From NCBI GenBank assembly GCA_040080145.1, contig JBEBJA010000069.1, positions 1,620 to 65,619 of the forward strand: 64,000 bases of DNA, read 5' to 3'. Below, piece by piece: positions 28,927 to 41,333 of the stretch. This DNA is from Hyphomicrobiaceae bacterium. GTDB lineage: Bacteria > Pseudomonadota > Alphaproteobacteria > Rhizobiales > Hyphomicrobiaceae. Made by a program: the position numbers and the translations under genes. The notes below the pieces were generated by a model, which had not been told where the DNA came from, searched no databases, and saw nothing but the letters and a program-made list of their open reading frames with translations. Positions within the stretch are counted from its first letter, which is position 1, and each line of letters starts with the position of its first letter.

Positions 28927-29259
28927 TCAGACGCAGCCGGTTGGCTTGGGCAATCCAGCGATCTTGCAAGCCTGTTTGGCCGGGCCGTAAGGGAACAGCG
29001 TATAGAGATATTCGTTGCTGCTTTTGTCGGGCCCCATCGTCTTGGCGAGCGCTTTTGTGAGCACGCGGATCGCAGGAGCGACCTGATATTCTTCGTAGTA
29101 CGACCGCAAGAAGTTCACCACTTCCCAGCGTTCGTCATTCATTTCGAGATCTTCGCTCTGAGCGATTTGGAGCGCGAGTTCCGAATTCCATTGGCTGAGG
29201 TCGGTCAGATAGCCTTCCTCGTCGGCTTCGATTTCGCTTCCGTTGTATTGGTAGCCCAT
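28927..29259 (-). CDS. dsrC: DsrC, sulfur-carrier / heterodisulfide protein
   Basis: The C-terminus AKQACKIAGLPKPTGCV carries both conserved Cys. Start at the ATG at 29259, preceded by GAAGGGAA. Confidence 0.95.
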   Translation of the reverse strand: MGYQYNGSEIEADEEGYLTDLSQWNSELALQIAQSEDLEMNDERWEVVNFLRSYYEEYQVAPAIRVLTKALAKTMGPDKSSNEYLYTLFPYGPAKQACKIAGLPKPTGCV

Positions 29260-29303
29260 CAGATGTTCCCTTCTGTTTGATTGCGTCCGGCCGGCTAGAA
29301 TTT

Positions 29304-30669: not shown

Positions 30670-31785
30670 CTAGAAACGGACATGCGCCGACATGTTCATG
30701 GTGTGGCGGGCACCGACCCATGTATCGAGATGGTGCTTGGTGAAGGCGAGACCCGTTTTCTCGAAGAAGCGCGGCCAGCCGATCCGGTCGATCCACTCGC
30801 CCATGCGCTCCCAGTGCTTCGCGTCCTCTTTGTAGGCGTAGAGGATCTTGCGCACGATATCTTCCACCTCGGGCCAGCGCGGCGGATTGTTGGGCAGGTT
30901 GGCAACCACCAGCTTGTGGAACGTCGGCTTCGAGCGGGCATTCGAATGCTTGCCGCCAACCCAGATGGCCAGTTTCGTCGATTCAGCGCTGTTGATCTGC
31001 ATCGGTGGACATGGCGGATAACAGGCACCGCAGCACACGCACTTTTTCTCATCGACTTCCAGCGACGGCTTGCCGTTGACCATAGCAGGGCGGATAGCCG
31101 CCACTGGACAACGCGCGACCACCGAGGGTCGCTCGCAAACATTGCCCACCCGGTCATGGTCGATCTTGGGAGGCTTCGTGTACTGGACGTTGATGGAGAT
31201 GTCGCCTTGGCCGCCGCAATTGATCTGACAGCACGACGTCGTGATGCGGACGCGCGTCGGCATGTCTTCCTGAATGAATTCCTTGTGCAACATATCCATC
31301 AGGCTTTTGACCACGCCCGAGGCGTCGGTGCCTGGGATATCGCAATGCAACCATCCTTGAGTATGCGAAATCATCGACACCGAGTTACCAGTTCCGCCAA
31401 CCGGGAACCCTTCTTCGGTCAGCGCCTTGATAAGTGCGGGAACCTTGTCAAAGGCTGCGACCATGAATTCGATGTTGGAGCGCGTGGTAAATCGCACATG
31501 CCCTTCGCCGTGTTTGTCGGCTATGTCGCAAAGCTTGCGGATCGTATAGACGTCCATCTGCCGCTGCGTGCCGGCGCGAACCGTAAAGATTTCATCGCCG
31601 CTCTTGGCGACATGGCGCAGCACGCCTGGACGCGGCCGCTCATGCCAAGCCCAGTTCCCGTAGTTCTTACGCATGATCGGGTGCATGTACTGCAGCGGAT
31701 CAGGAACGCCGGATTCAATTGGCTTGCGCGGCTTGGGAGGTGCGGCTGGTTTTGCAGGCGTAAGGCTCGCGGTGGTTTCAGTCAT
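30670..31785 (-). CDS. dsrB: DsrB, sulfite reductase beta subunit (reverse-acting type by context)
   Basis: Full-length DsrB-like sequence with ferredoxin-insert Cys clusters (CVCCGACYPPCP). Confidence 0.95.
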   Translation of the reverse strand: MTETTASLTPAKPAAPPKPRKPIESGVPDPLQYMHPIMRKNYGNWAWHERPRPGVLRHVAKSGDEIFTVRAGTQRQMDVYTIRKLCDIADKHGEGHVRFTTRSNIEFMVAAFDKVPALIKALTEEGFPVGGTGNSVSMISHTQGWLHCDIPGTDASGVVKSLMDMLHKEFIQEDMPTRVRITTSCCQINCGGQGDISINVQYTKPPKIDHDRVGNVCERPSVVARCPVAAIRPAMVNGKPSLEVDEKKCVCCGACYPPCPPMQINSAESTKLAIWVGGKHSNARSKPTFHKLVVANLPNNPPRWPEVEDIVRKILYAYKEDAKHWERMGEWIDRIGWPRFFEKTGLAFTKHHLDTWVGARHTMNMSAHVRF

Positions 31786-31918: not shown

Positions 31919-33271
31919 CTACTCGGCAGCATCCTTTGCGCCGCCGTCTTTGCGCAACCCGCGGCGGGCAAAGTATTTCTCTGCCTCTTCTGTGAAGTCG
32001 TCCGTGCGGACATAGCTCGACGTGCGGGGGTGCTTGACCATGTTCGGGTCGGGCTCGATACCGAGCGCATCAAGGAAGGCCGGCAACCCGATACGATCCA
32101 GCGTCTCGCCGACACGTTCGTGCTCAAGTGCGTTGTCGGCAAAGAAGTCGATCACCTGACGGGCAAACGCTTTCAATTTTGCATAGTCGGCATCCGTCTC
32201 AAGCTTCATGAACGGCACAATCATTGTGCCCATGAGATCGCCCACCTTGAGCGACCGCTTGCCACCGATGAGGATCGACGCACCCTTGTCGTCTCCTGGT
32301 GCCAACGCTTTATGCATGACGTTGATACAATGCATGCAACGCACGCAGCTCTTGTTGTCGACATCCAGCGTATCGTCGTCGTTGAGACTGAGCGCGCGTG
32401 TCGGGCACATGGCGATCACGTGGTCAATCGTATACTTGCGGCCCTGCTTGGCGACGTATGCTTTAACTTCCTGCTGATCGACTTTCATGTCGTCGCGCCA
32501 CGTTCCGATCACGGCAAAGTCGGCGCGATGGATGGCGTTGACGCAGTCGTTGGGACAGCCAGAGAACTTGAATTTGAACTTGTAGGGCAATGCAGGCCGG
32601 TGAATTTCGCCGACGTTATCGTTGAGGATCGTGCGCAAAGCGCGCGCCTCGTCATAGTTCGACATTTCGCAGCGGGCATGTCCAACGCAGCTCATGCTGG
32701 TGCGCAGAGCAGGGCCAGCCCCGCCAAGGTCGAAGCCGATCTCGTTCAGTTCATCAAAGGCTTTCTGGCATCCAGCAGTCGTGGTGCCCTGCAGCATGAT
32801 ATCGCCCGACTGGCCGTGCAACGCGATCAGGCCCGAACCATGACGCTCCCAGATGTCGCAAATATTGCGCAAAACCTCGGTGTTGTAGTGAAAGCCAGGA
32901 GGCGGCATCACGCGAAGAGTGTGGAACTCCTTGGAAGCTGGAAACTTGTCGGCAACTTCGGAAAAACGCGGAATGATTCCGCCGCCATAGCCAAACACCG
33001 AAACGGTGCCGCCCTTCCAGAATCCAAGCCGCTCGGTGTAGGAGTGCTCGAGCTGACCAAGCAAATCGTTCATCATCGGCGCGTATTGTTTGTCGTCGCT
33101 GTCGCGAAGCCGCTTCAGCCCGGTAACGAAGCTCGGCCATGGACCACCCTCAAGCTGGTCAAGTCGCGGAGTCGCATGCTTGTTAGCGGAGGCACATCCG
33201 CAACCTGAGCCACAACCACCCTCCTTGCCGCCGTCTTTCCCTGCATCCTCGGTCTTGGACTTATCTGCCAT
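31919..33271 (-). CDS. dsrA: DsrA, sulfite reductase alpha subunit, with a Cys/Gly-rich N-terminal extension
   Basis: KHATPRLDQLEGGPWPSFVTG and siroheme/Fe-S Cys motifs. No alternative in-frame ATG/GTG/TTG lies between the ATG at 33271 and the conserved KHATP region. Confidence 0.95.
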   Translation of the reverse strand: MADKSKTEDAGKDGGKEGGCGSGCGCASANKHATPRLDQLEGGPWPSFVTGLKRLRDSDDKQYAPMMNDLLGQLEHSYTERLGFWKGGTVSVFGYGGGIIPRFSEVADKFPASKEFHTLRVMPPPGFHYNTEVLRNICDIWERHGSGLIALHGQSGDIMLQGTTTAGCQKAFDELNEIGFDLGGAGPALRTSMSCVGHARCEMSNYDEARALRTILNDNVGEIHRPALPYKFKFKFSGCPNDCVNAIHRADFAVIGTWRDDMKVDQQEVKAYVAKQGRKYTIDHVIAMCPTRALSLNDDDTLDVDNKSCVRCMHCINVMHKALAPGDDKGASILIGGKRSLKVGDLMGTMIVPFMKLETDADYAKLKAFARQVIDFFADNALEHERVGETLDRIGLPAFLDALGIEPDPNMVKHPRTSSYVRTDDFTEEAEKYFARRGLRKDGGAKDAAE

Positions 33272-33448
33272 TGTCTTGCTCCGTCCCTAGGCTTCCTGGC
33301 CACGCATCATCCGCTCGCGCGGGAATGGTTCTTTGTCCACGATCTGGCGGTCAGACAATTTTTCGGGCGTGAGGCGAGCTGCAAAGCCCTCACCTCAGCC
33401 CCTGCCCAAATGTCTGAGCGCACGTGGTTGACGAGATCATATCTATAA

Positions 33449-33466
33449 ATTCGAATATTGCAATAA
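33449..33466. promoter_or_regulatory. AT-rich partial palindrome ATTCGAATATTGCAATAA in the dsrA / tauD-like divergent control region
   Basis: Read directly. Shares ATTCGAATAT with 41449-41458 and fits ATT-N2-AATATT-N2-AAT, as does the cbb palindrome. Confidence 0.4.
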
Positions 33467-33567: not shown

Positions 33568-34530
33568 TTGAAACGGCGCGACGAAAATAGTGCTCTAAGG
33601 AACGGTGGTCCAAGAGGTGGCGGGCCGGTATCCCCGTTCGAACTTGGCAACGATGATTATTATCGTCAGTGGCGCGAGAAAAAGCTATCGGCATTTCCAA
33701 GGTCGGTAGCCGAATTGAAGGTTACCCTCGCCGATCTTGGTCAGCCTTCCGTTGCTGAACGTCAACGCATTATAGATGCCATCAAGCGCGCCAACATGGC
33801 GATCTATGTCAGTCAACCGCCTGCAAACGACGCCGATGGCCGCAAGCTTCGGCAAGACCTTACGGCCTTTTTGGCTGGCTTCGGACTGGCGAGCGTTGAA
33901 AAACACCGCTCAGCCGAGAGCGATGGGTTCGTTGCCATTGAGGTTTCGCAAACACCAGTCAAACGTGGGTTCATTCCTTATACGTCAAAGCCGCTGAGCT
34001 GGCACACCGACGGTTACTACAACCCACCGCAGGCCGCTATCCGGGCCATGTTGCTCCATTGCGCTCACGCGGCCACGTCAGGCGGCGAGAATGCGCTTCT
34101 TGATCCAGAGATTGCCTACATCCGGCTTCGCGACGCCAACCCGAAATGGGTGGAGGCACTGATGCGGCCTGACGCGATGACGATCCCGGTATCCATTGAG
34201 GAAGACGGCAGCGAGCGTCCGGTCAGCACCGGCCCCGTATTCGCGGTGGATGCTTCAGACGGCAGTCTGCTCATGCGCTACACCGCGCGGGGCCGCAATA
34301 TCCACTGGCGGGACGACGAGGATACGCGCGCTGCAACGGCCTTCCTGGAACGGGTGTTGAAAGACGAACAGGAGCCACTCGTCCTGCGGGCGCAGTTGGA
34401 ACCAGGAGAAGGATTGATCTGCAATAACGTGTTGCACACCAGAACAGCATTCGAAGATACCGGAACACCCCGCCGCCTTATCCTGCGTGCGCGGTTTGCC
34501 ACAAGAATTGCAACCCACGAACCCGAGTGA
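33568..34530 (+). CDS. TauD/TfdA-family Fe(II)/2-oxoglutarate dioxygenase-like protein
   Basis: HxD in LSWHTDGYY, distal His in NNVLHTRTAF, Arg in RRLILRARF. TTG start is uncertain. Confidence 0.7.
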   Translation: MKRRDENSALRNGGPRGGGPVSPFELGNDDYYRQWREKKLSAFPRSVAELKVTLADLGQPSVAERQRIIDAIKRANMAIYVSQPPANDADGRKLRQDLTAFLAGFGLASVEKHRSAESDGFVAIEVSQTPVKRGFIPYTSKPLSWHTDGYYNPPQAAIRAMLLHCAHAATSGGENALLDPEIAYIRLRDANPKWVEALMRPDAMTIPVSIEEDGSERPVSTGPVFAVDASDGSLLMRYTARGRNIHWRDDEDTRAATAFLERVLKDEQEPLVLRAQLEPGEGLICNNVLHTRTAFEDTGTPRRLILRARFATRIATHEPE

Positions 34531-35022: not shown

Positions 35023-35101
35023 CCGGCACCCTTGCGGCTTTGTGTTCAGCCAGTGCTCCAAGTGCGAGGCCAGCGCATGCCGGTTATGGGACCAGGATGT
35101 G

Positions 35102-36550
35102 ATGGAGCAGCTTCCGATCAGCCTCAACCTCAAAGGCAAAAAGGTCGTCGTGACCGGTGGCGGTTCGGTCGCGGCCCGAAAGTGCGAGGCGGCCCTCCGC
35201 GCCGGTGGTAACGTATTGGTCGTGACGCCGCGTTTAGGACCCGAGTTCCATGCGCTGGCGTTGCATCGAGACTTCCGCCACCGGGCGGGTCGTCCCGAGA
35301 GCCACGATTTCGACGATGCCGTCTTGGTGTTTGGGGCCAGTGAGAATGAAATAGAGGATAATCGCGTCCACGAATTGGCTAAGTCCAGGCGCGCGCTGGT
35401 CAACATCCCAGACCGGCCCGAACTTTGCGATTTCTCCATGCCTTCAATTCTCGACCGCTCGCCGTTGTTGATTGCCATCTCATCGGCTGGTTACTCACCC
35501 TTGCTGACACGGTTGATAAAACAGCGCCTTGAAAGCACCATTCCAGCCGCCTTCGGCAATCTTGCCAGGTTCTTCGGGGGCCTTCGCGAACATGTTGTTG
35601 CCCACATCCCTGATAATCGTAAGCGCCGTTATTTCCTTGAAAAAATGCTCGATGGTCCCGTCGCTGATCTGGTGCTTGCTGGCGATGAACCACGGGCGAA
35701 GGCGCTGCTCGACAGCGAACTTGCAGCTCTCGATACCCCTGAGCAAGGACCCGGATTGGGCGAAGTCTATCTCGTCGGTGGCGGTCCAGGCGACCCCGAT
35801 CTGCTGACGTTTCGCGCCCTGCGCCTCCTGCAGCGCGCTGATGTCGTGGTCTATGATCGCCTGATCGGTAGCCCCATCCTCGAACTGGTGCGCCGCGATG
35901 CCGTCCGCATTTATGTCGGCAAGATGAAGGACAAGCATGAGCTCTCCCAGGTCGAGATCAGCAAGCTGCTTGTGAAACTCGCGCGTGAAGGCAAGCGCGT
36001 GTTGCGCCTGAAGGGTGGAGATCCTTTCATATTCGGTCGCGGCGGCGAGGAAATCGAAATGCTGGCCGGCGAGGGAATCCCGTTTCAAGTGGTGCCTGGA
36101 ATTACGGCGGCCTCGGGATGCTCCAGTTATGCAGGCATTCCACTCACCCACCGCGATCATGCCCAGTCGTGTCTTTTCGTCACCGGTCACTCCAAAGATG
36201 GCCAGCTCATGCTCGATTGGAAGGCCGTGCTACAGCCCCGGCAGACGGTGGCAATTTATATGGGATTGGCGATGATGCCCGGCCTCGTGCGGGATTTTCT
36301 AGCGCATGGGGCCGATCCCGACCTGCCGGTCGCCGTCGTTGATAACGGGACTCGGCCCAACCAGACGGTCATTTCGGGAACCATCGCGTCGATTGCGCAA
36401 AAAGTCGCCGAGGCCGGCATCAAGGGACCGGCCATGATTCTGATCGGTTCGGTTGTGCGGCTTCGCGAAAAGCTCGCATGGTTCAAACCGGAAACGGGAA
36501 CGCCCTCGACAACGGCTGGCATAGCCCAGTCCGTGGCGCGGATAGATTAA
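35102..36550 (+). CDS. cysG: siroheme synthase (precorrin-2 dehydrogenase/ferrochelatase + uroporphyrinogen-III C-methyltransferase)
   Basis: N-terminal Rossmann KKVVVTGGGSVAARK. SUMT domain VYLVGGGPGDPDLLTFRALRLLQRADVVVYD. Start at the ATG at 35102. Confidence 0.9.
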   Translation: MEQLPISLNLKGKKVVVTGGGSVAARKCEAALRAGGNVLVVTPRLGPEFHALALHRDFRHRAGRPESHDFDDAVLVFGASENEIEDNRVHELAKSRRALVNIPDRPELCDFSMPSILDRSPLLIAISSAGYSPLLTRLIKQRLESTIPAAFGNLARFFGGLREHVVAHIPDNRKRRYFLEKMLDGPVADLVLAGDEPRAKALLDSELAALDTPEQGPGLGEVYLVGGGPGDPDLLTFRALRLLQRADVVVYDRLIGSPILELVRRDAVRIYVGKMKDKHELSQVEISKLLVKLAREGKRVLRLKGGDPFIFGRGGEEIEMLAGEGIPFQVVPGITAASGCSSYAGIPLTHRDHAQSCLFVTGHSKDGQLMLDWKAVLQPRQTVAIYMGLAMMPGLVRDFLAHGADPDLPVAVVDNGTRPNQTVISGTIASIAQKVAEAGIKGPAMILIGSVVRLREKLAWFKPETGTPSTTAGIAQSVARID

Positions 36551-36572: not shown

Positions 36573-36911
36573 ATGTCACTTGAATTGAATGGACAGACGA
36601 TCGAAACAACGGCCAGCGGCTATATGGTCAACCTTGAGGATTGGAACGAGGAGTTGGCCCACGCGATCGCCGCGTTGGACGACATTACGCTCACGGAAGG
36701 GCACTGGGACGTCATCAACTACCTGCGCGATCAGTACATCAACAACAATCAGGTGCAGCCCAACACGCGCACCATCGTCAAAGCCATGAGCGAAAAATGG
36801 GGACGCGAAATCGACTCCAAGGATTTGTATGATCTCTTCCCAACTGACCCGTCAAAACAGGGCGGACGCATCGCCGGGTTACCCGAAAGCCGCCGCAAGG
36901 GTGGCTACTGA
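36573..36911 (+). CDS. DsrC/TusE-family protein lacking both conserved cysteines
   Basis: Aligns along its full length with the DsrC at 28927-29259. Its C-terminus is QGGRIAGLPESRRKGGY, versus QACKIAGLPKPTGCV in DsrC. GAAGGAAGGAAA RBS. Confidence 0.85.
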   Translation: MSLELNGQTIETTASGYMVNLEDWNEELAHAIAALDDITLTEGHWDVINYLRDQYINNNQVQPNTRTIVKAMSEKWGREIDSKDLYDLFPTDPSKQGGRIAGLPESRRKGGY

Positions 36912-36934: not shown

Positions 36935-37273
36935 ATGGTTCCGCGCGAATTCATCTGCGACGCTTGTGGGTTGCCTCCGCACGCCGTTGAGGACGCGGCT
37001 TTGGCCGGCCAGGAGCGGTCTGCCGGTCAAGAACTTCCTGCTAAGTGGGTACGTCGCACCTTCGGACGCCGGAAGTTTATTCTCTGCGACTGTTGCGGCA
37101 GCACCCACCATTTCAAGGGTGGTCTATCGACGTATCTGCAGGAGACACTTGGGCTGGGTCCGTACGCAGTATGTGACTTCGCCGCCGATGCAGCGCCAGG
37201 CAGCGGTCTGCATCGCTTGAGGATCAAACAGCCAGACCCAACTGACGACCCACCAGAGGGAGCAGGTTCGTGA
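36935..37273 (+). CDS. hypothetical 4-Cys (zinc-ribbon-like) small protein, paralog A
   Basis: AAGGAGG RBS. CDAC ... LCDCCG...F.GGLS.YL motif shared with the next ORF. Confidence 0.6.
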   Translation: MVPREFICDACGLPPHAVEDAALAGQERSAGQELPAKWVRRTFGRRKFILCDCCGSTHHFKGGLSTYLQETLGLGPYAVCDFAADAAPGSGLHRLRIKQPDPTDDPPEGAGS

Positions 37274-37584
37274 AAGTTTCGTGCGACAGTTGCCAGACGG
37301 AATGCGATGTCACGGTCAGTGGACCAACGCTGCTCAGGCGAGCGCTCCCCAGGGGCTGGCGTCCGCGCCGCATTGATGGCCGGGTCTATGTTCTTTGCGA
37401 TATTTGTGGAAACTTACGACAGTTCGTTGGCGGGCTTTCGCCCTATCTCGCCGCACGGCTCAACCTTCCATCCAATGTCGAAATAGAATTTCCCGAATAC
37501 ACCGAGCTTCCAGACGCTTGGCTTGCGCGGGGAAAAATAGCGAAAGCAAATCCGGCTGCCACGAAGCTCGAGTCGGGCGAGTAA
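37270..37584 (+). CDS. hypothetical 4-Cys (zinc-ribbon-like) small protein, paralog B
   Basis: GTG start overlaps the upstream stop, with a GAGGGAG RBS. CDSC ... LCDICG...F.GGLS.YL. Confidence 0.55.
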   Translation: MKVSCDSCQTECDVTVSGPTLLRRALPRGWRPRRIDGRVYVLCDICGNLRQFVGGLSPYLAARLNLPSNVEIEFPEYTELPDAWLARGKIAKANPAATKLESGE

Positions 37585-37634: not shown

Positions 37635-39092
37635 ATGTCCCAGTCGATATCCTTAAGCCGGCTTGCGCGTCTGGTTGGGTTGCCAAGATCGACGCTGCAG
37701 CGGATGGCTCAAGCAGGTGAGTTCGCAACTTTCGATGGTCACGTAGAACTCGCGGAGGTAATGCGTGCCTTTCCTGGCGCACGGTTCGACAACGACAGTG
37801 AGATCCGCCGCGTCGAAGAAATCAAGAATGATGCGCTCAACAAGTCTGCGGAAAGACCAGAGTTGCCCGATGCCGCCGTGCTGATGGGACGCCTGCAGCA
37901 GATGGGGCGAGACTATGCCGGCCTCGCGGCACGGGTAAGGCATTATGCGCTGGTCCACCGGTGGCTCGTCGAAAAAGTCAAAGATTTGACAGCGGACGGC
38001 AAAATCGAGCCGGTGGTTGGCGATGGGCTGCTGCGCTGGTTCAAGCATGAACTCGAAGCAACGCCGCGCGAGGATGCGCGCTGGCAGCAACTTGTTACAC
38101 AGGAGCGCCTCATGCGCGTGATGTCTGCCCAGGTGACGGTCTTGCCGCGCGGGACGACTTTCGAGGCCCAGGGAAATGAAACGCTGCTTGATGCCGGTCT
38201 TCGCGCAGGATTATCGTTCGCCTACGGCTGTAGCAACGGCAACTGCGGCGACTGCAAGGCGCGGGTGATCGAAGGCGAGGTACTCAAGGTCCGCCCCCAC
38301 GATTTTGCGCTGAACGAGGCACAGAAGGCCAAGGGAATCACCCTGATGTGCTCGTATGCAGCCGTGGGCGACGTCGTTCTCGAAGCCGCGATGGCTGGAA
38401 CCCGCGATATTCCCCAGCAAACCATCATGGCCCGCGTCCGGGCAATCGAACCGCTCGGTAAGCACGTAACCGCCGTGCATCTGCTGACGCCGCGCAGTGA
38501 TCGTCTGCAGTTTTTGGCCGGCCAGCGATTGCGTGTAACGATTGGTGGTCAAGCTGCCGAGGTTTCGATTGCAAGCTGCCCGTGTGAGGAGCGCCGCATC
38601 GAGGTGCATGTGCGCGAAACAGACACCTGGTCGCCGTTTGCGAGTGCAGGCCTAAAACAAAATGACGAGGTCGAAATCGTAGGGCCATTCGGCGAATTCG
38701 TGCTGAACGAGGCGTCGGCGCGCCCGTTGGTTCTGATTGCGCAAGGCGAGGGGTACGCGCCCATCAAGAGCCTCGTGCAACATGCCCTGTCGCTCGATCT
38801 CGCACCCAACATTGCGCTCTATTGGCTCGCGGACGCCGGCGGGCATTACCAGGAAAACTTGCCGCGATCCTATGCTGCAGCATTGGACAACTTCGACTAT
38901 ATCCCGTTGACCATCAACGGCGATCACAAGGCAGCCCTGGCAGCAATTCTCGCCCGGCCGGACCTCGTATCGAGCGACGTCTATGCGGCCGGTGATGCCG
39001 CGTTCATCGAAACCATGCGGTCCGCATGGTTGACTGCCGGACTATCGCGGGACAACCTGCGCGTCGAGGCGTTCGGCAGCATCCCGGACTGA
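37635..39092 (+). CDS. fusion protein: N-terminal HTH (MerR/excisionase-like) + plant-type [2Fe-2S] ferredoxin domain + FNR-like domain with degenerate cofactor motifs
   Basis: HTH: ISLSRLARLVGLPRSTLQRMAQAGE. [2Fe-2S]: CSNGNCGDC...LMC. FNR-like: GQRLRV...VSIAS...GPFGEF...LIAQGEGYAPI. GGGAGGGGGGAGG lies upstream of the ATG at 37635. Confidence 0.7.
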   Translation: MSQSISLSRLARLVGLPRSTLQRMAQAGEFATFDGHVELAEVMRAFPGARFDNDSEIRRVEEIKNDALNKSAERPELPDAAVLMGRLQQMGRDYAGLAARVRHYALVHRWLVEKVKDLTADGKIEPVVGDGLLRWFKHELEATPREDARWQQLVTQERLMRVMSAQVTVLPRGTTFEAQGNETLLDAGLRAGLSFAYGCSNGNCGDCKARVIEGEVLKVRPHDFALNEAQKAKGITLMCSYAAVGDVVLEAAMAGTRDIPQQTIMARVRAIEPLGKHVTAVHLLTPRSDRLQFLAGQRLRVTIGGQAAEVSIASCPCEERRIEVHVRETDTWSPFASAGLKQNDEVEIVGPFGEFVLNEASARPLVLIAQGEGYAPIKSLVQHALSLDLAPNIALYWLADAGGHYQENLPRSYAAALDNFDYIPLTINGDHKAALAAILARPDLVSSDVYAAGDAAFIETMRSAWLTAGLSRDNLRVEAFGSIPD

Positions 39093-39128: not shown

Positions 39129-39530
39129 TCAGTTTTTCGAACCACGCTTCATAACGTCGGGGCAGAAGTAGGTCTGCAAAATCGCGACAATGTCGGCAAC
39201 GGGCGTGTTGGCCAACGAATAGTGCACGAAGTTGCCCCGCCGGTCAGCCTTCACAAGGCCACCTTGACGCAACCTGATGAGGTGTTGCGAAACGAGGCTT
39301 TGGCGAGCATCGATCGCTTCGCAGATCTCCGTCACCGATTTGGCACCGTCCATCAAGAAGCAGAGAATCATCAGCCGGTGTCCGCTGCCCATTGTGCGCA
39401 GGAACTCCGCAGCTACCTCTGCCGAATCCTTTGTTGCTGCCAATGCGTTCACATCAATCTGAGTCGATGACGCTACCGGCTTTGAGGAATCGCGCCGCTT
39501 TGCGTCAAGCCGCGTCCGAGTGTTGGCCAT
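39129..39530 (-). CDS. ArsR/SmtB-family transcriptional regulator, two-Cys SqrR/BigR-like
   Basis: HRLMILCFL...SVTEICEAIDARQSLVSQHLIRLRQGGLV...YFC. The Cys residues in ILC and YFC are 66 residues apart. Start at the ATG at 39530. Confidence 0.8.
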   Translation of the reverse strand: MANTRTRLDAKRRDSSKPVASSTQIDVNALAATKDSAEVAAEFLRTMGSGHRLMILCFLMDGAKSVTEICEAIDARQSLVSQHLIRLRQGGLVKADRRGNFVHYSLANTPVADIVAILQTYFCPDVMKRGSKN

Positions 39531-39695
39531 GGTTCTCTCAATTGCATCAGGATAAACCGTTGAACGGAATACCTTCCATGCTATCGAAGATAGCTCATGC
39601 CGTACTTTGCTGCAATGCAATAAATTAGCACACCAGCTCTGCCTGCAGCGGTTAGCTCGGGTCAGATCCGGTCAGTCACTGATTTCGTAGGCGCC

Positions 39696-39728
39696 AAACC
39701 CGCAAAAGACGGTTGCTTTTGCGGGTTT
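39696..39728 (-). terminator. 13-bp stem-loop downstream of tusA
   Basis: AAACCCGCAAAAG pairs with CTTTTGCGGGTTT. Lies about 55 nt after the tusA stop. Confidence 0.5.
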
Positions 39729-39782
39729 GAATGGTCAGGGCACAGCGAACGCCGCTTCATGGGAAGGGCATGCGCAAGTGGT

Positions 39783-40010
39783 TCAGCCACCGCGTTTTAT
39801 CAAGAACCGGTACACTCCAGCATCTTCAGATTGCTCCACGAGCGTATTGCCCGTGGTCCTGCAAAACGCCTGGAAGTCAGCGACCGATCCAGGATCGGTC
39901 GCGAGAATTTCAAGTGTACCGCCGGGCGCGACTTCCGTGATAGCCTTCTTGGCCTTGAGAATAGGAATCGGGCAATTCGCGCCCTTAGCGTCGAGTGTCT
40001 TGTCAGCCAT
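39783..40010 (-). CDS. tusA: TusA/SirA-family sulfurtransferase (YeeD-like)
   Basis: 75 aa with the LDAKGANCPIPILKAKKA CPxP motif. Downstream of yeeE. Confidence 0.9.
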   Translation of the reverse strand: MADKTLDAKGANCPIPILKAKKAITEVAPGGTLEILATDPGSVADFQAFCRTTGNTLVEQSEDAGVYRFLIKRGG

Positions 40011-40208: not shown

Positions 40209-41333
40209 TCAGACTTCGTTCATTAGGATCGTTTCCATCTTCTTCATGCCCAGCACACCGCCGGCAACAATCGCAGCAAATGTCAGGAACGAACCAATCG
40301 CCAAAGTAGAAACGCCGGTAACAGCTTGGCCGATTGTGCATCCAAGCGCCATCACGCCACCAATGCCCATGAGGGCTGCACCAAACAGAACGCGCTTGGT
40401 ATCGGCCACATTGGAGAACGTCGTGAACTTGAAGCGCCCCATTGACTTCGCGGCGATGAAAGCACCCAAAATAGCGCCAAACACGGACGCGACTCCGAAT
40501 CCTGGAACCATCGTTGCTGTAAATCGCTGCAGCCATTCAAGAGAGTCTGCTGTTGGCCGCACGTACGTCAGGGAGATTGGCGTCATCGGCTTGCCGCCCA
40601 TTTCATCATAGGCCAACCCGGTGAGCACCCAGCCCGCAATCGCACATAACGCGATACCGCCGCCCGCGAGGATGTGGATAGGCGAGTTTCGAAAGTTTGC
40701 ATCTTTAAAACAATAGATTGCGGCTGCTCCCGCAATCAAAACGGTTATGACCAGATTGCCCGTGTCTGGTCCGAGTTTCGTGACCACGCCCACGAGTTCG
40801 CCGATGCTCTGAGTTGAAACTTTCAGGCTACTCAGGTTAACGCTCGTCACTTGGTCAAACCAATTGCGCAGCGGTCCGATGATGCCGCCGATGGCCATGT
40901 AGGCGAACAGTCCCATAACGATGAGCGTTACCAAAGATCGAAGATCGCCCGCGCCGACGCGGGTTAGATTTCGACTGGCGCAGCCGCCCGCGAAAACCAT
41001 CCCAAACCCAAAGATCAGACCGCCGACGATGTTGCCAAACCAGTTTAATGTGGGGCTCAGATACATGGATTTTGCAAGCGGAACCACGCCTGCCCAGTTC
41101 AGCAGCTGAGCGCCCACGAGCGTTAGCGCGGCCGCCAGTATCCACGAACGAAAGCGGCGATAGTCTCCGAACGACATGATGTCGGAGATCGACCCCATAG
41201 TGCAGAAATTGGTCCGGAACACGATGTATCCGAATAGTGTCCCGATAATCAATCCGCCAACCGCAAGCCAAACATCTGGATTGCTTTGTATCAAATCCCT
41301 CAGTGCACCCATGTCACCCTCCAGCCTTACCAC
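40209..41333 (-). CDS. yeeE: full-length YeeE/YedE-family transporter (thiosulfate/sulfur-compound uptake type)
   Basis: 374 aa with about 9 transmembrane helices. Three Cys-containing motifs (FCTMGS, GGCASRNL, LGCTIGQ). Followed by a tusA-like gene. Confidence 0.85.
   Translation of the reverse strand: MVRLEGDMGALRDLIQSNPDVWLAVGGLIIGTLFGYIVFRTNFCTMGSISDIMSFGDYRRFRSWILAAALTLVGAQLLNWAGVVPLAKSMYLSPTLNWFGNIVGGLIFGFGMVFAGGCASRNLTRVGAGDLRSLVTLIVMGLFAYMAIGGIIGPLRNWFDQVTSVNLSSLKVSTQSIGELVGVVTKLGPDTGNLVITVLIAGAAAIYCFKDANFRNSPIHILAGGGIALCAIAGWVLTGLAYDEMGGKPMTPISLTYVRPTADSLEWLQRFTATMVPGFGVASVFGAILGAFIAAKSMGRFKFTTFSNVADTKRVLFGAALMGIGGVMALGCTIGQAVTGVSTLAIGSFLTFAAIVAGGVLGMKKMETILMNEV

Follow-up and report, generated by a model that had tools for sequence, protein, structure and literature searches.

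Which function can be expected of a protein that joins a probable helix-turn-helix (HTH) head to a ferredoxin and to a reductase fold whose cofactor motifs look degenerate? This question is raised by a gene located near dsrAB in a Hyphomicrobiaceae bacterium (assembly GCA_040080145.1, contig JBEBJA010000069.1); the stretch of 64,000 nucleotides (nt) that we analyzed is referred to below as the window, and all coordinates count from its first letter. An earlier note, made from the DNA letters alone, had proposed that the gene product is a redox-sensing transcription factor that may control the dsr genes next to it. We find that the canonical flavin and nucleotide motifs are absent from the entire protein family, that the family carries an invariant Cys-Pro-Cys (CPC) motif beside the [2Fe-2S] ferredoxin, and that its members are linked, in Alphaproteobacteria, to a cysteine-free relative of DsrC. 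In our reading, to which we assign a probability of about 0.5, the protein is a transcription factor that would sense through its Fe-S cluster and a dithiol on a pseudo-reductase shell.

The gene is an intact open reading frame (ORF) that starts with an ATG at position 37635, preceded by a GGAGG Shine-Dalgarno sequence 4-8 nt upstream, and the homologues share this start methionine in the alignment. A longer, TTG-initiated ORF from position 37395 was discarded; it overlaps the upstream gene and is used by no homologue. The gene and the parts of its 485-amino-acid (aa) product are:

37635..39092, plus strand: entire gene, 485 codons, stop codon included at 39092; winged HTH, helical linker, [2Fe-2S] ferredoxin and FNR-like module
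37635..37775, plus strand: probable N-terminal winged HTH of MerR/Xis/BldC-like topology, aa 1-47 (AlphaFold2, Foldseek, sub-threshold HTH_17)
37794..38123, plus strand: predicted helical linker, aa 54-163 (AlphaFold2)
38124..38390, plus strand: plant-type [2Fe-2S] ferredoxin domain (Pfam Fer2), with the ligands C199, C204 and C207 (38229-38255) and C239 (38349-38351)
38418..38690, plus strand: FAD-binding-type beta-barrel of the FNR fold, without flavin motifs (Foldseek and HMMER matches to BenC, GcoB, T4moF and Fre)
38556..38567, plus strand: AEVS, aa 308-311, the equivalent of the flavin motif R-x-Y-S(T) (reductase alignments)
38577..38585, plus strand: Cys315-Pro316-Cys317, the hallmark of the family, in the hairpin loop that follows what was the flavin strand
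38712..39074, plus strand: Rossmann-type (NAD-binding-like) domain of the FNR fold (AlphaFold2, Foldseek, conservation tables)
38742..38762, plus strand: QGEGYAP, aa 370-376, the equivalent of the nucleotide motif GGTGxAP (reductase alignments)

A reductase fold without its canonical cofactor motifs

The four-part architecture described in the earlier note, including the plant-type [2Fe-2S] motif and the closing ferredoxin-NADP reductase-like module, is borne out by Pfam, NCBIfam, AlphaFold2, Foldseek and HMMER. Pfam Fer2 matches aa 167-241 with an E-value of 2e-12. The NCBIfam model BenC aligns with aa 177-480 (E 8e-28; 97.6 bits against a cut-off of 430 bits), and Fre and LuxG align with aa 262-480 (Fre, 83 bits against a cut-off of 230); PRK05713 gives 86 bits against a cut-off of 338, and all NCBIfam equivalog cut-offs lie far above the scores of the Hyphomicrobiaceae protein. 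AlphaFold2, supplied with 116 family sequences, yielded a model with a predicted local distance difference test (pLDDT) value of 86.8 and a predicted template modelling score of 0.73. In this model, a b-a-a-b-b-a unit (aa 4-45) is followed by four helices (aa 54-71, 80-120, 126-141 and 146-163), a ferredoxin fold, a six-stranded barrel and a Rossmann domain. The top Foldseek matches in the PDB were the CarAd reductase (7c3a), GcoB (5ogx), BenC (1krh) and T4moF (4wqm), with E-values from 5.5e-25 to 8e-22, and HMMER matches to solved reductases reached 1e-31. The C-terminal part is thus predicted to be a two-domain FNR fold with an N-terminal plant-type ferredoxin, the same fold and the same domain order (Fer2, FAD-type barrel, Rossmann domain) as in BenC, GcoB, T4moF, CarAd, AscD(E3) and Fre, to which the protein adds an N-terminus of 165 aa with the HTH and the helices.

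The protein belongs to a large and common proteobacterial family that is uncharacterized. An identical protein (P0001) is encoded by a Hyphomicrobiaceae metagenome-assembled genome (MAG) at NCBI, and the best 120 matches from a search of 5.8 billion proteins, every one of full length at about 484 aa, share 48-66% identity with it and originate from Hyphomicrobiaceae, Gallionella and Thiobacillus. Their annotation reads either "2Fe-2S cluster-binding protein" or else "CDP-4-dehydro-6-deoxyglucose reductase"; the latter label was given automatically because of the similarity to BenC/AscD/Fre-type reductases. Such labels amount to a systematic mis-annotation across many genomes that a definition of the family corrects. 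For all counts given below as out of 183, we aligned 121 close sequences with 62 representatives of 50%-identity clusters that had been found via the N-terminal domain alone; in an exhaustive phmmer search this domain forms 267 clusters at 50% identity. Near-full-length matches were retrieved in 80 species genomes, and the CPC motif is specific enough for the family to be retrieved from a set of 185,579 genomes, which contained up to 528 confirmed relatives. Neither Pfam nor NCBIfam has a curated family for the N-terminal domain or for the entire protein, and a full-text literature search found nothing on an HTH-Fer2-FNR-like architecture. Enzyme-fold transcription factors and Fe-S-containing MerR-like regulators are already known kinds of proteins; the combination of a flavin-less FNR shell with CPC and an RspA-type partner is new.

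FNR-family modules normally carry R-x-Y-S(T) for binding of the flavin and G-G-T-G-x-A-P for binding of the nucleotide. To place the corresponding positions, we aligned the protein and the family profile by HMMER to four solved enzymes (5OGX, 4WQM, 1KRH and 1QFJ). Residues A308-E-V-S311 lie opposite RRQYS in 5OGX, RSYS in 1KRH and RPFS in 1QFJ, and residues Q370-G-E-G-Y-A-P376 lie opposite the G-G-T-G-L/I/F-A/S-P/Y of the solved reductases. The pyrophosphate motif of the "GKMS" type (GxxS/T) stands opposite T-D-T-W-S, with the family consensus D-A-F-A, and is absent from all 183 members. At the aligned columns, R-x-[YF]-[ST] occurs in 0/183 sequences, and a regular-expression search of the adjacent 17 residues found it in a single one; GG[TS]G likewise occurs in none, while xGxG is kept in 135/183. 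The nucleotide loop of the family instead reads x-[G/D]-x-G-F/Y-A-P, and some distant members have no glycine in it at all (e.g., MDDNFAA). Relics of the flavin motif differ by lineage: Alphaproteobacteria keep the Arg (R-x-V-P) and Betaproteobacteria the Tyr (G-E/R-Y-A), while the Hyphomicrobiaceae protein retains only the Ser. Because the degenerate residues align directly opposite the canonical motifs in four solved enzymes, the motifs were replaced and not merely shifted; displaced motifs, the case that the earlier note had wished to see checked by alignment, are ruled out by the four independent alignments, and the loss that it had suspected in one protein extends to the whole family. Consistent with this, the protein gives no Pfam FAD_binding_6 (PF00970) or NAD_binding_1 (PF00175) match at E <= 0.1. 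Judged by its residues, the FNR fold appears to be kept as a shell whose canonical flavin and NAD(P)H motifs are gone, and the protein would be expected to contain no flavin. The missing cysteine of a "CG" motif, considered as a further sign of inactivity, was set aside as uninformative, since the active Fre has A-G there too.

Directly after the strand that carries RxYS in true enzymes, 4-6 residues past the lost flavin motif, all members of the family possess the CPC motif in the context A-S-C-P-C-E/D. The Hyphomicrobiaceae protein contains six cysteines, the four ligands of the cluster motif (C199-x4-C204-x2-C207-x31-C239) and C315 and C317, and all six are invariant in 183/183 sequences; P316 is present in 182 of them. 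CPC persists even in distant members with 27-40% N-terminal identity, and it takes the place of TPD in Fre, QPG in BenC and TAD in GcoB. In other proteins, Cys-Pro-Cys forms a redox-active disulfide beside the Fe-S cluster of ferredoxin:thioredoxin reductase, a disulfide relay in Mia40, and a soft-metal site in the P1B-ATPases CopA and ZntA; the folds of these proteins are unrelated to the one discussed here, and the likeness is one of analogy only. The earlier suggestion that the Fe-S cluster might gate DNA binding had overlooked CPC, which is a better candidate for the sensing site than the cluster alone.

A third conserved cysteine (position 410, N-L-C-R) is found in most betaproteobacterial members and in 58/62 distant members; this position is Leu or Pro in Alphaproteobacteria, and Pro in the Hyphomicrobiaceae protein. 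This difference in sequence may be a sign that the alpha- and betaproteobacterial groups sense by different chemistries.

The N-terminal domain and its helical linker

Residues 1-47 are a probable HTH. In the AlphaFold2 model, they run as a strand (aa 4-6), two helices (aa 7-14 and 18-26), a second strand (aa 36-38) and a third helix (aa 39-45). A separate model of aa 1-165 (pLDDT 80.5) retrieved by Foldseek BldC (6ama; template modelling (TM) score 0.69-0.71, probability 0.99-1.0) and the mycobacteriophage Xis protein (4j2n; probability 0.99, TM about 0.7 over about 50 residues), both with E-values in the range of 0.06-0.6; the likeness to BldC and Xis would lie in the predicted b-a-a-b-b-a winged-HTH topology (TM 0.66-0.71 over about 50 aa). 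The HTH plus the long helix aligned with the full-length MerR-family proteins 3hh0, CarH and CadR, and SkgA, NmlR, MtaN and BmrR were matched as well. For the N-terminal model overall, the Foldseek probabilities range from 0.85 to 1.0 but every E-value is at least 0.03. A profile built from 44 N-termini and compared with PDB sequences found the HTH of TtgV (E 0.006) and Cox of phage P2.

Pfam HTH_17 matches the protein with an E-value of 0.006, which is under the gathering threshold. It is the recurrent best HTH family among the relatives (E 4e-5 to 2.5e-3; matched in 5/35 close members) and is matched by all five short relatives that consist of the N-terminal domain only (E 4e-5 to 2e-3), with scores that never reach Pfam's 27-bit cut-off in any member examined. 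The family shows no variation at R18 and Q22 (second helix) or at G35 (wing). From the predicted fold and these sequence matches, the MerR/Xis subclass is the likely one. The MerR/excisionase-type assignment made in the earlier note fits the predicted topology; the statistics of the matches are weak and remain below threshold.

The linker had been estimated at about 150 aa, which proved too long: it comprises about 110-118 aa (aa 48-165). Its model is of high confidence over aa 80-140 (pLDDT 83-96) and includes a 41-residue helix (aa 80-120, pLDDT above 90), which could form a MerR-style dimerization coiled coil if the model is correct. With the N-terminal domain as a query, phmmer retrieved only proteins of the same architecture and short versions that possibly stand alone. 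Five of the latter (P0183, P0192, P0234, P0245 and P0265; 143-157 aa) correspond to the HTH and the first long helices alone; they may represent an independent module or else fragments from short contigs.

Gene neighborhood and a probable DsrC-like partner

The gene is the last of a co-oriented run that is divergent from dsrAB and further ORFs of dsr size. The genes of the neighborhood are:

30670-31785, minus strand: dsrB (Pfam NIR_SIR), with further ORFs of dsr-like size downstream
31919..33271, minus strand: dsrA (Pfam NIR_SIR), first gene of the divergent dsr cluster
33568-34530, plus strand: TauD/TfdA-family dioxygenase gene, first of the co-oriented run
between the TauD-like gene and cysG, stretch to 35022, plus strand: a 79-aa ORF without a family and a DUF6967 ORF
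35042-36550, plus strand: cysG, in the co-oriented run
36573..36911, plus strand: cysteine-free DsrC/TusE-family gene of the RspA type (Pfam DsrC, E 1e-33; TIGR03342 above cut-off)
36935..37273, plus strand: mini-protein 1 with four Cys, 112 aa (CxxC ... CDCCG ... HFKGGLSTYL)
37270..37584, plus strand: mini-protein 2 with four Cys, 104 aa, a paralogue of mini-protein 1 (CxxC ... CDICG ... QFVGGLSPYL), with a 4-nt overlap
39129..39620, minus strand: SqrR/BigR-type ArsR-family gene (Pfam HTH_5), convergent with the HTH-ferredoxin gene and a rival regulator
39783-40010, minus strand: tusA (Pfam TusA)
40209-41333, minus strand: yeeE-type (YeeE/SoxT-like) sulfur transporter gene (Pfam Sulf_transp)

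The DsrC-like protein encoded upstream of the mini-proteins passes the TIGR03342 cut-off, contains no cysteine and ends in GLPESRRKGGY; it lacks both C-terminal cysteines, as RspA-type proteins do. We use the family name DsrC/TusE/RspA, and the term RspA-type for the lack of both C-terminal cysteines, as they appear in PMC8477390. The canonical DsrC of the dsr operon is encoded at 28927-29262 on the minus strand and ends in ACKIAGLPKPTGCV; the window thus encodes both a canonical DsrC and a cysteine-free paralogue. Other Hyphomicrobiaceae possess a second RspA subtype with the C-terminus AGVPAPHDTRDLSFGSTY. The two mini-proteins share the pattern CxxC ... CDxCG ... F-x-GG-L/I-S-x-YL, match no Pfam or NCBIfam family, and look zinc-ribbon-like in sequence. 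Homologues of mini-protein 2 form 47 clusters among the 5.8 billion proteins, and all those with a named source belong to Hyphomicrobiaceae or Alphaproteobacteria.

We compared 17 alphaproteobacterial loci, two of which (L005 and L006) are the same place. One or more mini-proteins, the cysteine-free DsrC-like gene and the HTH-ferredoxin gene are kept together in 14/17 of them (13 distinct), and in these 14 loci the DsrC-like gene lies upstream of the family gene; one or two mini-protein genes likewise precede the latter, as its neighbors. At L013 it was missed by tblastn and is visible in the ORF listing; the C-terminus of the L014 protein lies outside the inspected set. At L019, none of the partner genes is present. 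The genes dsrN, dsrL or dsrAB were found inside the fetched flank in 9/17 loci. A Phaeovulum sp. MAG (Rhodobacteraceae; L011) shows nearly the order of the window, with dsrB-dsrA, cysG, rspA, one mini-protein gene, the family gene and tusA, and its RspA is 65% identical to the counterpart in the window. Such a near-identical order in a different alphaproteobacterial family suggests lateral transfer of the whole block.

A second line of evidence is a gene fusion. A contig from an independent lineage (JGI 3300051197, locus L089, 10001-12019) encodes a family protein of 672 aa, P0242, that carries a DsrC-like domain at its C-terminus; this domain is 42% identical to the RspA partner of the Hyphomicrobiaceae, its distinctive tail included. 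The P0242 gene stands directly beside an IscA-like gene and dsrN/P/O/J/L/K/M/C/H/E. As a Rosetta-stone fusion, P0242 argues more strongly than any other observation for a joint action of RspA and the family protein, and for one in a dsr context. An operon or a fusion of an HTH-Fer2-FNR-like protein with RspA was not found described in the searchable literature. The dsr cluster beside P0242 looks complete, and a 384-aa protein with no Pfam match on record is encoded 4 nt upstream of P0242.

Sensor, enzyme or scaffold

The features described above can be combined into the following model. The MerR/Xis-type winged HTH and the long helical stalk, which probably dimerizes, would carry a ferredoxin/FNR-fold module derived from BenC/Fre-type reductases. 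The trigger would be the oxidation state of the [2Fe-2S] cluster, that of CPC, or both, where the dithiol of CPC could turn into a disulfide, a persulfide or a metal-bound form; this trigger would alter the conformation of the C-terminal module, and the change would travel via the stalk to the DNA-binding heads. In analogy with SoxR, the oxidation state of the cluster could gate the distortion of the DNA. Persulfide sensors, or the pairing of an Fe-S cluster with a disulfide in ferredoxin:thioredoxin reductase, suggest as a further analogy that the reaction could take place at CPC, perhaps with electrons passing between CPC and the cluster. In Hyphomicrobiaceae, the protein would probably work with the co-transcribed RspA-type protein and the two 4-Cys mini-proteins, and in Alphaproteobacteria more generally the RspA-type DsrC mimic and the mini-proteins would probably be part of the sensing complex, whereas in Betaproteobacteria the protein seems to work alone.

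SoxR is a MerR-family [2Fe-2S] redox-sensing activator in which the redox state of the cluster gates transcription. It resembles the proposed sensor in that a MerR-like HTH, a long helix and a [2Fe-2S] cluster are united in one polypeptide. However, the cluster segment of SoxR is a short C-terminal CX2CXCX5C motif, whereas the cluster considered here resides in a complete plant-type ferredoxin domain that is followed by the FNR fold; the CX2CXCX5C segment is not present in the Hyphomicrobiaceae protein, and beyond the class of the HTH there is no sequence relationship between the two. SqrR/BigR, CstR and the sHdrR/SoxR regulators of Hyphomicrobium are cysteine-pair sensors in the regulation of sulfur oxidation, as is proposed here. 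Yet they are small ArsR- or CsoR-type proteins whose cysteines come from distant positions, and they are not homologous to a protein with a vicinal CPC in an FNR shell and an Fe-S cluster.

Little is understood of how the oxidative Dsr pathway is regulated, and the known regulators of sulfur oxidation are small persulfide sensors of the ArsR or CsoR type. The family offers a concrete candidate of another design, in which an enzyme fold would act as the sensor, equipped with an Fe-S cluster and, next to it, the dithiol of CPC, and partnered by a look-alike of DsrC. If this is true, RspA-type DsrC homologues and the lineage-specific pair of mini-proteins would also be placed in a functional context for the first time. 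Since members occur in the cultivable species Thiobacillus denitrificans and T. thioparus, genetics and biochemistry of the family are feasible.

A number of observations weigh against the model, and we consider them together with the rival explanations that they favor. Two concern the HTH itself: the N-terminus has no statistically strong match to a curated DNA-binding family (Pfam below gathering threshold, Foldseek E at least 0.03), and Pfam MerR is not matched by the Hyphomicrobiaceae protein. Others concern the reductase module. A Tyr is found at the flavin-stacking position in 67/183 members, and FAD_binding_6 is weakly matched in 18/35 relatives, as is NAD_binding_1 in 7/35; the surviving Tyr and the FAD_binding_6 matches leave room for some flavin binding. 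The family retains GP-G-F, a structural motif, and also a part of the G-loop (xGxGFAP). The former nucleotide crevice is lined by near-invariant, non-canonical residues (K378, S379, Q/E382, H383, Y405, N408, R411, D448 and Y450), and G453 is also conserved in this domain, which makes a function of the crevice surface as ligand site or interface possible.

These features, together with the FNR fold predicted at high confidence, speak for the rival explanation that survives best: the protein would still be a working electron-transfer enzyme, in which electrons pass between the [2Fe-2S] cluster and either a flavin site of non-canonical type or the disulfide of CPC (the latter as in ferredoxin:thioredoxin reductase), the physiological partner is the DsrC-like RspA, the mini-proteins or another protein of sulfur metabolism, and the N-terminus serves docking or oligomerization. 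It agrees with the fusion or operon with a protein of the DsrC family, whose members normally are redox or sulfur carriers, and with the location of the gene next to dsr, in a run of co-oriented genes that includes cysG. We nevertheless hold it to be unlikely. No member possesses a complete RxYS or GG[TS]G, and in some the glycine loop is wholly gone; the DsrC-like partners lack the redox-active cysteines and therefore cannot be heterodisulfide substrates; and the N-terminus is HTH-like in fold and sequence.

Further points bear on the genes that such a transcription factor would control. We found neither dsr nor RspA nor mini-protein genes within about 6 kilobases at any of the approximately 65 betaproteobacterial loci examined, which include those of the cultured strains T. 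denitrificans RG and T. thioparus DSM 505, and the function of the family therefore cannot solely be that of a dsr regulator. The betaproteobacterial genes stand alone beside recJ, an rluA-like gene or hemA/prfA, with their own promoter, and one distant member lies beside a gene for an MMPL transporter. Moreover, a canonical SqrR-type regulator adjoins the HTH-ferredoxin gene in the window. Its best PDB match is the ArsR-family chain 6o8k-6o8o (E 4e-16), which we take to be SqrR of Rhodobacter capsulatus, and both persulfide-sensing cysteine positions are aligned (LMILCFL to LMIMCYL; YFCP to QFCS). Judged from these sequences, the SqrR-type repressor, tusA and yeeE appear to be a canonical sulfide-responsive module, and the repressor a rival regulator for the region. 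At L005/L006, an ArsR-type gene and an SQR-like Pyr_redox_2 gene are located upstream of the conserved unit.

All this would fit a transcription factor with a general redox or Fe-S regulon that does not include dsr; the vicinity of dsr would then reflect co-localization or a lineage-specific recruitment, and the SqrR-type repressor would be the regulator that responds to sulfide in the region. Against this stands the recurrence of the dsr adjacency in two distant lineages, in one of them with the DsrC-like fusion, and we consider such a purely general role rather improbable. The connection to dsr drawn in the earlier note has thus gained from the conserved alphaproteobacterial synteny and from the fusion beside dsr, and has lost by the lack of dsr at the betaproteobacterial loci; that dsr is a direct target of the protein is a tentative proposition, which we rate somewhat below even odds. 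A more far-reaching version seems doubtful to us: in a two-center sensor, the [2Fe-2S] cluster and CPC would exchange electrons or sulfane sulfur within the flavin-less FNR shell, the cysteine-free DsrC mimic would report on DsrC/DsrEFH/DsrAB, and the protein would be the regulator dedicated to oxidative dsr genes that has long been sought. Very improbable, finally, is that the protein is purely a pseudo-enzyme scaffold, which binds DNA or serves as an adaptor constitutively and senses nothing, with a structural cluster and a structural CPC (e.g., Zn-binding or a dimer bridge): the catalytic motifs are lost and Cys pairs often bind structural metals, but the cluster ligands and CPC are strictly invariant among members only 27-50% identical, and a site with a structural role alone would not usually be a CPC exposed in a loop beside a redox cluster.

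The upstream regions were inspected for candidate operators of the proposed transcription factor. Those of the alphaproteobacterial operons (n=13, read by eye) share a CTTGCC-N17/18-GATAAT promoter; a conserved dyad or an operator with a spacer of 19-20 base pairs (bp) was not found in these 13 regions, which is a further point against the model. At the Thiobacillus loci L026-L088, conserved GAATCnnnGATTC / GAATC...GATTC inverted repeats lie about 45-85 nt 5' of the ATG, between the family gene and the divergent recJ. These repeats have no counterpart in the window; in Thiobacillus, they could be an operator, perhaps an autoregulatory one. Within the 30 nt before the ATG (loci L001, L003 and L025-L088), a -10-like TAnnnT hexamer (TAAGAT, TACCAT, TAACAT or TAGACT) ends 5-8 nt before the start in 59/64 distinct non-alphaproteobacterial upstream sequences, and such a hexamer occurs in 0/16 alphaproteobacterial ones. 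Judging by this spacing, Thiobacillus and Gallionella probably produce a leaderless mRNA from the gene.

In the window, inverted-repeat and promoter scans of the region between dsrA and the TauD-like gene yielded a single sigma-70-like site and, apart from it, nothing but short palindromes (ATTCGAAT/AATATT). At 33428-33464, an AT-rich core contains these palindromes together with two promoter-like elements that overlap and diverge; one of them is TTGCAA-N16-TATGAT on the minus strand, towards dsrA. On the plus strand of the same segment, TTGACG-N20-AATATT was read by eye and is not listed by the scan for spacers of N16-18; it is a candidate for a MerR-like 20-bp spacer. The TauD-like gene, the 79-aa ORF and the DUF6967 gene may belong to the long transcription unit that ends with the HTH-ferredoxin gene. 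On the other side of this gene, a perfect 14-nt inverted repeat, CAAACCCGCAAAAG / CTTTTGCGGGTTTG, with a 7-nt loop occupies 39695-39729, in the gap that separates the SqrR-like gene from tusA; a terminator hairpin and the operator of the repressor are both conceivable roles for it.

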